From contig CAZVYS010000005.1 of assembly GCA_964630755.1 (NCBI GenBank), positions 1-43,225 on the forward strand: a stretch of 43,225 bases of DNA, in the 5' to 3' direction. Origin of the DNA: an uncultured Pseudomonadales bacterium (GTDB lineage Bacteria; Patescibacteriota; Microgenomatia; UBA1400; CG1-02-47-37). A model generated the notes under the pieces. That model made no database searches. It worked only from the letters and a program-made list of their open reading frames with translations, and was not told the DNA's origin. Positions 7,457 to 30,223 of the stretch are shown piece by piece (position 1 is the stretch's first letter; the number at the start of each line of letters is the position of its first letter). Both the position numbers and the translations under genes were made by a program.

Positions 7457-7491
7457 TCCCGATTAAATGCGGGACAAGGGGGGTGAAAATA

Positions 7492-8397
7492 ATGAAAAAA
7501 ATACTAATTAGTTTATGCTTGCTTTTTGTAGCTGTAACTACAGTTAAGGCAGCCAGTTTCGGGGGCTTGGGGATTTATCCAACTAATCCAGTTGAAGATG
7601 TTCCATTATCTTCTTCTTGGTTTATATATAACTTAGTGCCTGGAGAAGAAAAAACTGACACGGTTACAGTTCAAAACACTAGCGAAGAGACTCTGTCAGC
7701 TAAAATTTACGCTGTTGATGGAACTACAACACGAGATGGAGCTTTTGCCCTTTTAAATGAGTCAGATCCTAAAAAGGATCTTGGTTCATGGGTGGATTTA
7801 CCTGTTACAAAAGTAACTTTGGCTCCAGGAGAAAATAGACAGATTAACTTTGATATTAAAGTGCCTAGTGGAGCTAAAGTGGGTAGTCATTTAGGTGGAA
7901 TTGTACTTGAAAACCTTAAGGTTGGTGAAGGTAAAGGAGTCGACGTGGTTACCCGAGTAGGGGTGAGAATATATGAGACAGTACCAGGTGTATTGGTTCG
8001 ATTGCTTGACTTAACAGATTTATCCTGGAAGTTAGTGAATGACAAAGTTAATTTAATGTTTAAGTTGGAAAATTCTGGAAATGTTCACTTAGATCTTAAG
8101 GGTAAGATTGAGTTTATAAACCAATTCACTGGTAAAGTCGTGGTTGAAGAAGAAGCTGATCTTAGAACTGTATTGCCAGAAAAACCAACTGAAGTACCCT
8201 ATGTTTGGCAAAAAACACCTTTGCTAGGTAGCTATGTAGCTCGGGTAACGATTGATTACGGTAATGAAGCCGAAATAATCGAGCGAGAAGTTCGCTTTAT
8301 GTATGTAACTAAAAAAGCGTTGACTCTAGCTGGAGTTGGTTTTGTAGTCTTGTTAGTAGCTAGAGCTATAGCAGCTAGCAAAAGAAAGAGAAGATAA
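7492..8397 (+). CDS. DUF916/DUF3324-type WxL-interacting protein (CscA-like), copy 1
   Basis: Strong SD before ATG 7492 (track start is GTG 7483); WFIYNLVPGE, V.N.S, VDGTTTRDGAF, GSHLGGI, VGVRIYETVPG, N.GNV; C-terminal TM and basic tail. Confidence 0.8.
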   Translation: MKKILISLCLLFVAVTTVKAASFGGLGIYPTNPVEDVPLSSSWFIYNLVPGEEKTDTVTVQNTSEETLSAKIYAVDGTTTRDGAFALLNESDPKKDLGSWVDLPVTKVTLAPGENRQINFDIKVPSGAKVGSHLGGIVLENLKVGEGKGVDVVTRVGVRIYETVPGVLVRLLDLTDLSWKLVNDKVNLMFKLENSGNVHLDLKGKIEFINQFTGKVVVEEEADLRTVLPEKPTEVPYVWQKTPLLGSYVARVTIDYGNEAEIIEREVRFMYVTKKALTLAGVGFVVLLVARAIAASKRKRR

Positions 8398-9636
8398 ATG
8401 AAGAAGTGGTTAGTAATAGCCATATTATTATTGATCGGGATGGGCCCCGTTCCACGATTGTGGGGCGGGGCGGGGGCCCAGGAAGCTGGCGGTTTGGGGA
8501 TTATTCCGGCAGTAGTGGATGCTAATGATCCAAATGGATCTTGGTTTGTGTATGAGCTTGAACCTGGAAAAACTATCAATGAAAAAGCGGCAGTTATTAA
8601 TCTGTATGACGAGCCAGTTGAAGTAGAGGTTTATCCAGTTGATGCTACAACTACTAAAGATGGGGCTTTTAGTTTAAAGCAGAAAAATGATGAGATAGAG
8701 TCTGTGGGTGGATGGGTTGAGGGATTGCCATTAAAACTTAGTTTGCAAGCTAAAGAACGTCAGATTATTGATTTTAGTTTTACTATTCCAGAAGGAACTG
8801 AGCCTGGTGATTATTTAGGTGGTTTGGTGGTCCAAAAGGTCAGTGTAGATGAAACCAAGATGCAAGTAAAGACTGTGGTTAGGACTGGAGTAAGAATTTA
8901 TTTAACAGTTCCAGGTGAAGTTAAGCGGGAGATTGAGGTAACTAAACTAGAGTTTAAGAAAATTAAGGGTAAATACAAGTTGCTTTTAAGTTTAAAAAAT
9001 ACTGGCAATGTTCGACTTGAAAACATGCTAGTTAAGTTGAATTTAAAAAGTAAGTGGGGATGGCCGCCTGAGTCCAGGGCCTCCTATCCGCAAGCTGCAG
9101 TTATGTTTCCGGGAAAGGAAATTAGTCTGGAATTACCTTGGGAAAACTCAAAACCAATCTTAGGCCAGTTTGATCTTAAGATAGAAGTTATATTTGGAGA
9201 GATACTGAAGATTAATAAGAGCTTAAGTTTGTGGATGATAGATTGGTTGAAGTTAGGGATAGCGATAGGCAGCTTAATTGTTTTAATCGTATGGTTTAAA
9301 TTAACGGCTAAGAAAAGAAAGCAAAAAAAGCTTTTAAGACAAAAACAAAAAATAGAACGAAAGAAAATGATTGGCTTTTCAACTAACAATAGAAAGTTGA
9401 AAAAACATGGAGATGAGGTTGATTGGTTACTAAAAGAAATTCGAGTGATTATAAGAGAAGAGCTTCAAGAGATGGCAAGGAATGGTCAGCTAGATGATTT
9501 TAAGAAGGGTAGTCGTAAGAGATTAAAAACACCAAGGGGTTTAAAGTTACCAAGAGGAATTCATAGTGAAGCTGTTTCTAACGGGAATAAAAAGAAGTTC
9601 TTCTTTAGTAAACTTAAGCAAAAGAGTAAGAAGTAG
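8398..9636 (+). CDS. DUF916/DUF3324-type WxL-interacting protein, copy 2, with long basic cytoplasmic tail
   Basis: Paralogous motifs WFVYELEPG, VDATTTKDGAF, GDYLGGL, TGVRIYLTVPG, NTGNV; TM helix then about 110 Lys/Arg-rich residues. Confidence 0.8.
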   Translation: MKKWLVIAILLLIGMGPVPRLWGGAGAQEAGGLGIIPAVVDANDPNGSWFVYELEPGKTINEKAAVINLYDEPVEVEVYPVDATTTKDGAFSLKQKNDEIESVGGWVEGLPLKLSLQAKERQIIDFSFTIPEGTEPGDYLGGLVVQKVSVDETKMQVKTVVRTGVRIYLTVPGEVKREIEVTKLEFKKIKGKYKLLLSLKNTGNVRLENMLVKLNLKSKWGWPPESRASYPQAAVMFPGKEISLELPWENSKPILGQFDLKIEVIFGEILKINKSLSLWMIDWLKLGIAIGSLIVLIVWFKLTAKKRKQKKLLRQKQKIERKKMIGFSTNNRKLKKHGDEVDWLLKEIRVIIREELQEMARNGQLDDFKKGSRKRLKTPRGLKLPRGIHSEAVSNGNKKKFFFSKLKQKSKK

Positions 9637-9639
9637 TGA

Positions 9640-9672
9640 CAAATCATGGGACGATCGTCCCATGAAAATGAT
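9640..9672. repeat. 33-bp direct repeat, copy 1, with a perfect 22-bp palindrome; overlaps the promoter of the PaaX-like gene
   Basis: CAAATCATGGGACGATCGTCCCATGAAAATGAT; palindrome at 9644-9665; runs into TGaTATACT at 9669-9677. Confidence 0.95.
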
Positions 9673-9683
9673 ATACTTAGTTA

Positions 9684-10448
9684 ATGGCTAAGAAGTATAA
9701 GATTATTGACAGAGTATTAATTGGAGTGACTATATTAGATGAATTATTGGATCAAACTGTTGGAGCTGGTTCTAGAGCTTATCATGCTAGAAAATTAGCT
9801 TTTTGGACGCCGCCGAATTACAAAGGGACTAATCTTAATCAAGCAATTAATCGGATGTTAAGAACCGGATATTTGCACAAAGAAATTGTTAAGGGTGAAC
9901 CAGTTTTAAGAATAACTAGAGGAGGAAAAAAAAGACTAAAAAGAGACTTTTCATATTTTAGAATGCAGGATAAAAAATGGGATGGTTATTGGCGATTAGT
10001 AATTTTTGATATCAGTGAGAAAAAAAGATATCTAAGAAATTCATTAAGAAGAAAATTAAAGGAACTAGGTTTTGGAATGTGGCAAAAGAGTATTTATATT
10101 TCACCTTTTGATTTTGAAGAAGATATTTATGAATTTTTGTTGAGTAAGAAATTATTAGGAATGGCTTATGTGTTAACTGCTAGACATAGATTAATGGGGG
10201 ATGCAAAACAGTTGGCTAGCCAAGTTTGGCCTGTTGAAAAAATCAATAAAGAATATGAAAAACTTGATGATCAATTAAAAAAACTAGAAACTGGGATTGA
10301 AAAAGCGATTTTATATCAGAAACTAAAACAAATAAATGAAGATTACTTACAATTATTACTATTAGATCCTTGTTTGCCAAAGCAGTTACTACCAAATAGT
10401 TGGTATGGATTTAAAATAAAAAAGAAGTTATTAAATTTCTTTAAATAG
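9684..10448 (+). CDS. PaaX-family protein (winged HTH, Cas2-like central domain, PaaX C-terminal domain)
   Basis: AINRMLRTGYL...ITRGG; WDGYWRLVIFDISEKKR..R..LR..L..LGFG..QKSIYISP; DPCLPKQLLPNSW. Confidence 0.85.
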   Translation: MAKKYKIIDRVLIGVTILDELLDQTVGAGSRAYHARKLAFWTPPNYKGTNLNQAINRMLRTGYLHKEIVKGEPVLRITRGGKKRLKRDFSYFRMQDKKWDGYWRLVIFDISEKKRYLRNSLRRKLKELGFGMWQKSIYISPFDFEEDIYEFLLSKKLLGMAYVLTARHRLMGDAKQLASQVWPVEKINKEYEKLDDQLKKLETGIEKAILYQKLKQINEDYLQLLLLDPCLPKQLLPNSWYGFKIKKKLLNFFK

Positions 10449-10453
10449 TGATT

Positions 10454-10486
10454 CAAATCATGGGACGATCGTCCCATGAAAATGAT
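10454..10486. repeat. 33-bp direct repeat, copy 2, identical to copy 1
   Basis: Same 33-mer 5 nt after the stop codon; palindrome at 10458-10479. Confidence 0.95.
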
Positions 10487-10556
10487 TGGTTTTAGATAGT
10501 TGATTTGTATGTTAGGATGGATATTGTTAGATATTTTTGTAAATTGATAAATTTAT

Positions 10557-11063
10557 ATGCCTAAACAAATAGTTAGAGATGTATTTGGTGAGCTTTTAGA
10601 AACTGGTAAAGCTACAGCCAAAGCAGGCAAAAAGGCGGCTTCAGATATTGCTTCACAAACTGCAAAGACTGTGGCCGGTCATAAACCAAGATCTGGTGAT
10701 AGTTCTGCTTGGCTTGAAAGAGCAAAAGCTAAAAAAAAGGTAGGAAGACAGTCTAAGCAGCAGACAGAAGAACAAGCTAGAGGTGAGCAAATACAAAAAA
10801 TGCAAGAGATGGATAAGAAACAATCTCAACAAGCATATAATCAAATCCAAGATCAAATTAAACTAATTCAACAAAGAAGAGCTCAACAGCCAAGAAAGTA
10901 TGTGACTGGAAAGGCAGACTTTGATGATGAGCAGGTAAAAGACCCAGAAACATTTTTTGAAAAGATGAAAAAGAAAAAAGAGGAGATGAAAAATAAAATA
11001 TTACCTTGGACTAAAAAGAAAGGAATGGGTACTGGTGAGATTAGAAGGGGAGCATCTGGATGA
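10557..11063 (+). CDS. hypothetical Lys/Gln-rich coiled-coil protein
   Basis: 168-aa ORF whose stop overlaps the cysS start (ATGA). Confidence 0.65.
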   Translation: MPKQIVRDVFGELLETGKATAKAGKKAASDIASQTAKTVAGHKPRSGDSSAWLERAKAKKKVGRQSKQQTEEQARGEQIQKMQEMDKKQSQQAYNQIQDQIKLIQQRRAQQPRKYVTGKADFDDEQVKDPETFFEKMKKKKEEMKNKILPWTKKKGMGTGEIRRGASG

Positions 11064-12484
11064 AGTTATATAATTCTTTAACTTCTAAACTTGAAGAGTT
11101 TAAGCCATTAAGACAGGATAGAGTAGGGGTTTATACTTGTGGGCCAACGGTTTATGACTATGTTTCAATAGGTAATTTTCGGACTTACTTTTTAGGAGAT
11201 TTAGTAGTTAGAGCTTTAAGATGGCTTGATTACAAGGTTAGTTATATTATGAATATTACTGATGTTGGACATTTGACTGGAGATAATTTAGGGGATGCTG
11301 ATACAGGCGAGGATAGGCTTGAGAAAGGAGCTAAAAGAGAGGGAAAGACAGCTTTTGAGATTGCAAAGTTTTATACTGATGATTTTATTAAATCATTTTT
11401 AAAACTAAATTTAGTTAAACCAGAAAAATTTACATTAGCAACAGAATATATTAAAGAACAAATAGAGTTACTTAAAAAGATTGAATCAAAAGGCTTTACG
11501 TACAGAATCGATGATGGGATATATTTTGATGTAGTTAGTTTTGAAAAGGCGGGGAATAAATATGGACAGTTGTCTACTTTGGATGAGATTAGTAGTCATG
11601 GGGTAAGAGTAAAACAAAACAAACAAAAAAAAGATTCAAGGGATTTTGCTTTGTGGAAGTTTTCGCCTAAAGACAAGAAAAGGCAGATGGAGTGGGAGAG
11701 TCCTTGGGGAGTTGGATTTCCTGGTTGGCATTTAGAATGTAGTGCCATGAGCATGAAGCATTTGGGAGAGCAGTTTGATGTTCATGTTGGCGGTGAAGAC
11801 TTAAGGTCAACTCATCATCCAAACGAGATAGCACAGAGTGAAGCTGCCACTTTGAAAAAGCCGTTTGTTAAGTATTGGCTTCATGGTGCTTTTTTAAAGG
11901 TCGATGGTGGTCGAATGGGAAGAAGTTTGGGAAATACTTATACTCTTCAAGATTTAAAGGAAAAAGGTTTTTCTGCAATGGATCTTAGGTATTTTTATTT
12001 AACAGGACATTATCGAAAGCCACTTAACTTTACTTTTAGGTCGATTAGGGCTTCAAAAGAAGCTTATTCTAAGTTAAAATCTGCGGTGGTTGGTTGGCAA
12101 GGAGCTAAGACAAGGACAAAACTTTCAGAGGAGAAGTTGCAGAAACTTCAAGGCCTGGCCTTGAAGTTTAGGCAGGCAGTGGAAAATGATTTAAACATGC
12201 CACAAGCGTTAGCTACGGTATGGGAGATGGTCAAATCAAATATTCCTGATTATGATAAATATGAATTGATCAGTGGTTGGGATAGAGTTTTAGGCTTAGA
12301 TTTAACTGAAGTTTCTAAAAGCGAAGTCAAGATTCCAGAAGAGGTTATTAAGTTAGCTGAGAAAAGAAAACAATTTCGGCAAGAAGAAAAATGGGATAAA
12401 GCTGATGAGGTTAGAAGAGAAATTGAGAATAAAGGATATTTGATAAAAGATTTAGGATCGGAATTTGAAGTAATGCAAAAATGA
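11060..12484 (+). CDS. cysS: cysteine--tRNA ligase
   Basis: YTCGPTVY, NITDVGH, DFALWK, SPWG.GFPGWHLECSAMS, HHPNEIAQSEA. Confidence 0.97.
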   Translation: MKLYNSLTSKLEEFKPLRQDRVGVYTCGPTVYDYVSIGNFRTYFLGDLVVRALRWLDYKVSYIMNITDVGHLTGDNLGDADTGEDRLEKGAKREGKTAFEIAKFYTDDFIKSFLKLNLVKPEKFTLATEYIKEQIELLKKIESKGFTYRIDDGIYFDVVSFEKAGNKYGQLSTLDEISSHGVRVKQNKQKKDSRDFALWKFSPKDKKRQMEWESPWGVGFPGWHLECSAMSMKHLGEQFDVHVGGEDLRSTHHPNEIAQSEAATLKKPFVKYWLHGAFLKVDGGRMGRSLGNTYTLQDLKEKGFSAMDLRYFYLTGHYRKPLNFTFRSIRASKEAYSKLKSAVVGWQGAKTRTKLSEEKLQKLQGLALKFRQAVENDLNMPQALATVWEMVKSNIPDYDKYELISGWDRVLGLDLTEVSKSEVKIPEEVIKLAEKRKQFRQEEKWDKADEVRREIENKGYLIKDLGSEFEVMQK

Positions 12485-27333: not shown

Positions 27334-27358
27334 ACCTTCAGGGATGATCCCTGTAGGT
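27334..27358. repeat. REP-like palindrome (family B), diverged copy
   Basis: ACCTTCAGGGATGATCCCTGTAGGT. Confidence 0.65.
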
Positions 27359-27400
27359 GTGTGAAAAGATTGTTCTTGAGGTGCTTTGGTCATATTTCAG

Positions 27401-27424
27401 CCTGCAGGGACAGACCCTGCAGGT
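27401..27424. repeat. REP-like palindrome (family B)
   Basis: CCTGCAGGGACAGACCCTGCAGGT, identical to 30195-30218. Confidence 0.9.
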
Positions 27425-27427
27425 GGA

Positions 27428-30192: not shown

Positions 30193-30219
30193 AACCTGCA
30201 GGGACAGACCCTGCAGGTT
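30193..30219. repeat. REP-like palindrome (family B)
   Basis: AACCTGCAGGGACAGACCCTGCAGGTT, 11-bp arms. Confidence 0.9.
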
Positions 30220-30223
30220 GAAA

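Follow-up and report, generated by a model that had tools for sequence, protein, structure and literature searches.

A PaaX-like gene bracketed by two copies of its own palindrome, a candidate self-regulating accessory cassette of Patescibacteria

In Escherichia coli and Pseudomonas, PaaX is a repressor that responds to phenylacetyl-CoA. The E. coli regulator has the operator TGATTC(N27)GAATCA and represses its own promoter, Px, by steric hindrance, with RNA polymerase occluded, according to the review PMC9493321. In complete genomes paaX seldom occurs apart from phenylacetate clusters, according to PMC13186573. Here we describe a PaaX-like gene that lies between two identical palindromic repeats in a stretch of 43,225 nucleotides (hereafter the window; contig CAZVYS010000005.1, positions 1 to 43,225, of GenBank assembly GCA_964630755.1), from an uncultured bacterium placed in the Patescibacteriota by GTDB. 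The window is contig C5 of a genome designated G000 (1.02 Mb in 61 contigs, 37% GC, 97.1% complete). Some of its features are known from three further systems. In REPtrons, a RAYT gene (REP-associated tyrosine transposase, an IS200-like Y1 transposase) is likewise bracketed by cognate repetitive extragenic palindromic (REP) sequences, with solo copies elsewhere, some of them in coding DNA. Cas2 and VapD share with the protein considered here the ferredoxin-like fold and an Asp on strand beta1 with a following K/R motif. In lambda, the CI repressor gene lies between the operators OR and OL, which can pair by looping. We propose, with a probability of roughly 0.55, that the present gene encodes a PaaX-type dimeric repressor which together with two cognate operators forms a self-regulating accessory cassette.

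The window contains exactly two copies of the 33-nt sequence CAAATCATGGGACGATCGTCCCATGAAAATGAT, 814 nt from start to start, each with the perfect 22-bp palindrome TCATGGGACGATCGTCCCATGA inside it, as stated in the original prediction, which had been made from the sequence alone; no further match is present in the whole window at up to three mismatches. The features of the locus are as follows.

9634-9639, + strand: TAGTGA, of which TAG is the stop codon of a WxL-interacting-protein-like (WxLIP-like) open reading frame (ORF) at 8398-9636; copy 1 follows directly.
9640-9672, no strand: the first repeat copy (copy 1, 33 nt), proposed as the 5' operator, with the 22-bp palindrome at 9644-9665 and the dyad core CGATCG.
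9668-9676, + strand: TGATATACT, an extended -10-like box with TG, read from the sequence, 7 nt before the ATG.
9684-10448, + strand: the PaaX-like gene, 254 aa, characterised with Pfam, NCBIfam, PADLOC, AlphaFold2, Foldseek and a modelled homodimer.
10446-10451, + strand: TAGTGA, of which TAG is the stop codon of the PaaX-like ORF; 2 nt (TT) before copy 2.
10454-10486, no strand: copy 2, identical in sequence to copy 1, the proposed 3' operator.

The dyad centre of copy 1 lies 29 nt upstream of the ATG, and the right outer arm of this copy, AAAATGAT, overlaps the -10-like box, from which a leaderless or near-leaderless mRNA would be expected. In the syntenic ortholog L009 the site is likewise followed by TGATATACT. 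The earlier observation that copy 1 abuts an extended -10 and copy 2 follows the stop codon is confirmed. The further remark that each copy stands just after a TAGTGA containing a stop is exact for copy 1, whereas the offset of two nucleotides at copy 2 had gone unmentioned. The dyad centre of copy 2 is 20 nt beyond the end of the PaaX-like stop codon, and 70 nt separate the end of this copy from the ATG of the next gene (10557). The neighbours of the PaaX-like gene in the window are the WxLIP-like gene, a gene for a 168-aa protein and cysS.

The repeat pair is neither a chance duplication nor an assembly artefact. In 100 dinucleotide-preserving shuffles the mean number of matches to CAAATCATGGGACGATCGTCCCATGAAAATGAT was 0.00. 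Logan contigs from two studies match the repeat region without differences, and an independent 1051-nt Logan contig, from run X3, spans copy 1 and its two flanks and enters copy 2; an artefact, which the original prediction had allowed for, is therefore unlikely, although no Logan contig spanning copy 2 with both flanks was found. Contigs of runs X1 and X2 contain a joint from 10453 to 9640, which could be taken as a sign of misassembly or, along with the circular junctions that had been anticipated, as a circle. As such a joint is expected from a k=31 contig graph on a 33-nt repeat, it was counted neither for nor against a circle. A degenerate CRISPR-like array beside a Cas2 gene might be suspected from the repeat length of 33 nt and from the Cas2 model TIGR01573, which scores 26.8 bits against a cut-off of 24.5; yet the match covers aa 104-139 only (beta1-alpha1), the two copies have a whole gene between them, and Cas_Cas1 has no match in the 97.1% complete genome, so that the CRISPR analogy drawn at first does not hold. 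Given that 60 of 117 related genes show the pattern as well (see below), we give next to no credence to chance, artefact or CRISPR remnant as the explanation.

Pfam assigns the 254-aa protein to PaaX_M (1.4e-22) and PaaX_C (5.3e-07) and weakly to Cas2, while the N-terminal Pfam PaaX domain has no match in it. In the AlphaFold2 model (pLDDT 87.5, pTM 0.82) a winged helix is present (H35-61, E64-77), followed by the Cas2-like PaaX_M domain at aa 97-177, whose strand beta1 reads VIFDI with Asp109, and by the helical PaaX_C domain, giving the architecture winged helix, PaaX_M and PaaX_C. The best Foldseek matches of this model were 3kfw (4.1e-9), E. coli PaaX 8a39 (8.1e-9) and 3l09, over 252-271 columns; the middle domain matched Cas2 chains with a probability of 0.98-1.00 over 72-82 columns, as well as VapD chains, and the N-terminus matched MarR-type winged helices. 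The Cas2-like central domain named in the original prediction is thus recovered by both profile and structure comparison. Among the defence-system libraries only partial Cas2 models gave matches, those of PADLOC with values down to 1.2e-07.

The three-part fold, with its Cas2-like middle domain for dimerisation, is common to the modelled protein and PaaX (8a39, TIGR02277), and the widely spaced inverted arms of the PaaX operator, in the form given in PMC9493321, resemble the sites of the present family. However, the protein is far below the cut-off of the PaaX equivalog TIGR02277 (79.8 bits against 264.55; 70.2 for a paralog on contig C12 of the same genome), and PaaA_PaaC (PF05138) has no match in the whole 97.1% complete genome, which extends the earlier observation that phenylacetate genes are absent from the window. 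Other differences from PaaX are the CG-rich dyad core conserved in the sites of the family, the second site copy at the 3' end of the gene, and the many paralogs per genome, each with its own site. Neither E. coli PaaX nor 3kfw has an Asp at the Cas2 beta1 position where the 254-aa protein has VIFDI, and in alignment A1 the conservation of Asp109 is 90% or higher. The protein differs from Cas2 in the limitation of the match to beta1-alpha1, in the fusion of this domain to a winged helix and PaaX_C, and in the lack of an array and of Cas1.

A homodimer of the protein was modelled with an ipSAE of 0.54 (0.54, 0.53 and 0.54 in the individual runs) against 0.00 for the best of three controls; at least 58% of contacts are shared between the runs, with a partner pLDDT of at least 80. 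Of the solved homo-pairs used for calibration, 20 of 30 reached the mark, as did 1 of 23 single chains. It is the Cas2-like domain, residue 109 included, that forms the modelled interface, comparable to the Cas2 and VapD homodimers with their Asp at the interface. Because PaaX and Cas2 dimers have already been solved, the result may reflect likeness to these rather than constitute proof.

G000 contains a single further PaaX_M gene, at C12:21960-22727 between dprA and topA. Its start abuts a 34-bp perfect palindrome (C12:22723-22756), the longest perfect palindrome of the genome, and its stop codon is covered by a second copy with two mismatches (C12:21937-21970). This palindrome (type 2) and that of the window (type 1) have different arms and a common core, ACGATCGT. 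A third type-1 copy is found at C26:2314, in the linker of a glycosyltransferase gene, where the symmetry of the palindrome is preserved by a paired T>C / A>G change, and two extra type-2 copies are at C16:19973 and C4:37001, for a total of three type-1 and four type-2 sites. The solo sites fall in the glycosyltransferase linker, at the point where a MiaB-like gene is split, and within sequence that encodes a signal peptide. Scatter of the repeat over the genome independently of PaaX genes, named in the original prediction as evidence against a link, was therefore not found, the C26 copy being the only further one of type 1, and the numbers of copies also led us to reject a genome-wide REP-like repeat. 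Seven of the nine ACGATCGT sites in G000 belong to the two PaaX palindrome families. CGATCG as such occurs 74 times in this genome, with about 118 occurrences expected from base composition, and orphan CGATCG-centred palindromes are present at C20:11389 and C39:2237.

The split MiaB-like methylthiotransferase gene (C4:36668-37719; L036) is divided exactly at its solo C12-type palindrome into a UPF0004 ORF of 121 aa and a Radical_SAM ORF of 229 aa, while the closest homolog (in genome G016) is a single frame of 372 aa. We considered the solo sites as possible clean insertions and rejected this, as alignments of the MiaB-like, glycosyltransferase and 378-aa homologs showed no net insertion at the palindromes.

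As a control, flank-to-flank similarity was scored for the 875 ORFs of G000 with at least 100 aa and sufficient flanking sequence. The two PaaX-like genes ranked 3rd and 4th, with scores of 70 and 61 (median 18, 99th percentile 46.5). The top 15 genes comprise these two, eight RAYT-like genes with REP hairpins and five others, so that true REPtrons are present in the same genome. The 254-aa protein, however, is not an HUH/Y1 enzyme, its Pfam matches being PaaX_M and PaaX_C, and its palindromes exist in three to four copies, not in tens, as against 34 generic REP-like hairpins in G000, some of which lie in frame within RAYT ORFs. GC-rich hairpins of the REP type (CCTGCAGGGACAGACCCTGCAGG) occur in the window at 27335-27361, 27401-27427 and 30195-30221, and a RAYT-like gene with a Y1_Tnp match (1.8e-08) is located just beyond it, at C5:44404-45060 (L226).

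To follow the pattern in relatives, 41 genomes of the order were searched with the protein; 28 of these, G000 included, gave matches to the PaaX-like family, with up to eight per genome, and all matched places were fetched. A gene was counted as bracketed if a 5'/3' flank pair scored at z of at least 5 against 40 shuffles. By this measure 27 of 64 scored genes are bracketed in the order, and 33 of 53 in a wider sample of GTDB genomes drawn with alignment A2, giving 60 of 117, each pair having its own sequence. Together with the bracket of the C12 paralog, this bears out the suggestion that the palindrome is cognate to the gene. Excluded from the first set were L033 (no tblastn match) and L059, L088 and L092 (flanks too short); from the 80 loci of the wider sample 14 duplicates were dropped and 13 were skipped for an ORF below 170 aa or a flank below 70 nt. 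The bracketed genes span Microgenomates, Parcubacteria and Saccharibacteria, with some records labelled Verrucomicrobia and Thermodesulfobacteriota. One PaaX-like gene of the family, at G014:C108:1833-2564 (L060), has two in-frame TAA codons and is therefore probably a pseudogene; its flank pair is still there (z 9.2).

Exact patterns taken from the window palindrome, a 22-mer and a 20-mer, were also scanned against collections of genome, metagenome and viral contigs. The 22-mer had no match in the genome contigs and one in the metagenome contigs (L053:2059-2085), on a 60%-GC contig without a PaaX gene, where 27 bases identical to the window site form a 28-bp perfect palindrome. The 20-mer had no match in viral contigs and three in GC-rich metagenome-assembled genomes with no PaaX gene nearby: in L055 and L056, labelled Caldilinea, a 40-bp perfect palindrome encloses the 20-nt core, and L054 has the core alone. 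All four were read as probably unrelated hairpins.

When the two copies belonging to each gene are aligned, the site is seen to be tripartite, with outer inverted arms, a dyad core and variable spacers. The arms, of about 6-10 bp, are kept between both copies of the bracketed genes, as is the CG-rich core of 6-10 bp, which may be CGATCG, CGGCCG, GCGATCGC, CGGTCG, CACGTG, CATATG or others. The spacers differ between the copies and are often not self-complementary (e.g. in L034, L074, L083, L084 and L085), and for this reason the sites fit a protein dimer on duplex DNA rather than a hairpin; recognition of duplex DNA would distinguish the family from REPtrons. Related proteins share outer arms in these alignments: arms of the ATCAT...ATGAT type are common to the syntenic orthologs in the window, L008 and L009, and in L034, L035 and L057 the arms ACACTT...AAGTGT are kept with a changed core. 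The asymmetric parts of the two copies are in direct relative orientation in some genes and inverted in others.

The palindromes could alternatively act as hairpins, either terminating or stabilising the upstream gene and the PaaX-like gene at their 3' ends, or as RNA sites processed by the Cas2-like domain with its RNase fold. Each copy follows a stop codon on the + strand, the window copies as RNA would form a 9-bp GC-rich hairpin (-18.5 and -15.6 kcal/mol; z -3.65 and -2.09), the pairing of the C26 copy is kept by the compensatory change mentioned above, and Cas2 and VapD chains are among the fold matches. On the other hand, an intrinsic terminator was rejected, as no U-tract follows either copy and no terminator-like site was called in 9300-10800, and a known RNA family likewise, since Rfam gave no match at E<=1 over the repeat copies and its two matches at E<=1 are far below the gathering score. 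The 5' copy would also be outside a transcript begun at the adjacent -10, and most bracketed relatives, owing to their spacers, would make poor hairpins where a protein footprint fits. A hairpin or terminator role would thus suit the perfect palindrome of the window and not the split sites of the family, and we regard it as improbable.

The position of the sites is in keeping with operators. Over the 60 bracketed genes the 5' dyad centre has a median distance of 34 nt upstream of the ATG (interquartile range (IQR) 27-51), with 47 at 15-60 nt, and a -10-like hexamer (at least 5/6 matches) is found downstream of 33 of the 5' copies as opposed to 18 of the 3' copies. The 3' dyad centre follows the end of the stop codon at a median distance of 22 nt (IQR 5-47), with 31 of 60 within -20 to +30. 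Operator-type arms at the gene's own promoter, as predicted from sequence, are a pattern that the window and the bracketed relatives fit.

In the reading that we favour, a dimeric PaaX-fold protein, composed of a winged helix, the Cas2-like domain for dimerisation and the helical C-terminal domain, would bind its own tripartite palindrome in both flanking copies. Recognition of these sites by the protein is predicted with considerable confidence. Because the 5' copy overlaps the -10 region of the gene, a bound dimer would shut off the gene's own promoter, and occupancy of this copy would amount to self-repression, as for E. coli PaaX at Px. The 3' copy, on or just past the stop codon, would serve as a second operator; when bound, it may pair with the 5' site and loop out the gene of about 0.8 kb, or form a roadblock and thereby insulate the inserted gene from the genes on either side. 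The autorepressor with two operators suggested in the original prediction is supported to the extent that the form of the site fits a PaaX-type operator beside a -10 box, looping being a conjecture. A repressor gene flanked by two operator sets of its own that are able to loop would resemble lambda CI, with the difference that both lambda operators belong to promoters of divergent lytic operons, whereas here the 3' site is usually on the stop codon, with no gene necessarily following it.

Several observations weigh against this reading. At copy 1 no -35/-10 pair was called by a sigma-70 scan that demands a -35. Ordinary regulation does not explain the 3' copy: in L034 and L035 the gene that follows is convergent, and in the window 70 nt separate the copy from the next ATG. 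Because of the convergent genes, and because distances vary, promoter or operator of the next gene was rejected as a general rule for this copy. None of the solo sites in G000 stands at an obvious promoter, so that with three type-1 and four type-2 sites the putative regulator would have almost no regulon. A conserved 'core' orthogroup (L012-L018, L058, L061 and L062) has the motif [FY]D[IV] and no detectable bracket. Finally, the bracket is tied to this Cas2-type motif: 59 of 94 genes with it are bracketed and 1 of 23 without it (27/45 against 0/19 in the first set, 32/49 against 1/4 in the second), although kin are not independent, and a pure repressor would not need the Cas2-type Asp, which canonical PaaX lacks.

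The same association between bracket and Asp would be expected if the gene were a one-gene selfish or mobile cassette, in which the protein binds the palindromes as element ends and the two Asp109 residues, at the dyad of the dimer, make a nick or cut in the CG-rich core; cutting would then drive insertion, excision or spread by gene conversion, with autoregulation as a side function. The dyad core lies where the interface of the Cas2-like dimer (residues 103-109 and others) would be placed, the 3' copies hug the stop codons in the manner of a compact insertion sequence (IS)-like unit, and the REP-bracketed RAYT genes of the same genome offer an analogy. No known transposase or recombinase fold is present in the protein, however, the palindromes number only three or four per genome, their solo sites lack a net insertion with respect to homologs, the relative orientation of the copies is mixed, and the only circular-looking joint is explained by collapse of the contig graph.

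How the gene comes and goes was examined at two loci. The 168aa-cysS locus is present in 12 of 14 genomes of the family, and the only genomes with a PaaX-like gene immediately ahead of the 168-aa gene are G000 (after the WxLIP-like gene), G011 and G003 (both after recR), the other nine loci, among the 11 relatives that hold the locus, having no PaaX gene there. At the empty sites of G005, G009, G002, G013 and G008 the recR stop codon overlaps the next ATG or is at most 21 nt from it, and in G010, which has the WxLIP-like context of the window, 14 nt separate that gene from the next; none of these six tight sites contains a palindrome. G002 is empty and its congener G011 filled, other orthologs of this pair being 84-89% identical. 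The three filled genomes are found in three separate places on the cysS tree, which requires at least three gains or several losses. At the second locus, dprA and topA are directly adjacent (at most 35 nt) in five of 12 relatives' loci (G010, G013, G008, G005 and G004), five others have different inserts and two are uninformative; the PaaX cassette is between dprA and topA in G000 only, where its left arm encodes the last dprA codons (..EELHI and stop, against ..EELPLV and stop and ..EELLES and stop). As the empty sites hold neither gene nor palindrome, the gene and both its sites come and go as one unit.

The behaviour as a single indel unit at both loci, and the scattered filled genomes, are in accord with the selfish cassette. 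The original prediction had looked for empty sites with a single repeat in relatives; empty-site alleles do exist, but no single repeat is found there, and recombination into a pre-existing site through the element's own palindrome is therefore unsupported. No clear target duplication was seen between filled and empty sites, base-exact boundaries being precluded by divergence. Within genomes the identity between paralogs is at most 52.7% (16 multi-copy genomes); with no pair above 53% there is no sign of recent copying, and near-identical copies and terminal repeats with target duplication, the hallmarks of insertion sequences and transposons, were not found. The PaaX-168aa-cysS synteny in three genera, at 53-57% identity, would fit old vertical descent with losses as well. 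An element that inserts or spreads through its own palindrome, as first envisaged, is thus disfavoured by the absence of single-repeat empty sites, the mixed orientation and the divergence of the paralogs, and we consider the selfish cassette unlikely. Doubtful in still higher degree is the bolder, joint proposal that winged helix-turn-helix-Cas2-fold proteins with the catalytic-type Asp of Cas2 are the active part of a new class of one-gene selfish cassettes, with the winged helices contacting the outer arms and the two Asp residues placed over the CG-rich core at the dyad, nicking or cutting there for insertion or upkeep between tightly packed host genes.

The surroundings of the two loci show features of their own. 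The 168-aa gene (10557-11063) encodes a Lys/Gln-rich protein with no Pfam match and a conserved C-terminus (..LPWT.K.GMGTGEI.RG.SG); it is directly before cysS in every locus examined, and rearrangements and inserts are concentrated at the junction upstream of it. In the tree of cysS (11060-12484) G000 groups with G009, G005 and G008, while by dprA identity the nearest genus is g2 (75-79%), a discord that may reflect recombination around the cysS locus. The inserts at the dprA-topA loci (L109-L120) are varied accessory genes, and G001, G002 and G003 have another bracketed PaaX-like paralog just upstream of dprA. On the other side of the cassette in the window, 7483-9636 contains two tandem WxLIP-like genes (PF06030), each with a signal peptide and a basic, anchor-like C-terminal tail.

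Relatives of the protein appear in public records as 'hypothetical protein', 'phenylacetic acid degradation operon negative regulatory protein' or 'CRISPR-associated endonuclease Cas2'. In the full-text literature, with subscription journals and supplementary files outside the scope, we found no paper on PaaX together with Cas2 or with Patescibacteria, and no published description of this self-bracketing layout. Our results point to a self-contained gene module that comes and goes as such and has not previously been described.

Patescibacteria have very few regulators, yet up to eight matches to this family are present per genome of about 0.9 Mb. If these are self-bracketing repressor cassettes, they would provide a ready catalogue of orthogonal protein-operator pairs and a first handle on transcription control in organisms not yet grown alone. 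If the Cas2-type Asp is catalytic, it would show a role for the Cas2-like domain outside CRISPR and bear on the origin of the adaptation module, and if the nuclease or mobility reading were true, the protein would be a free-living, DNA-site-specific relative of Cas2 and as such categorically new.

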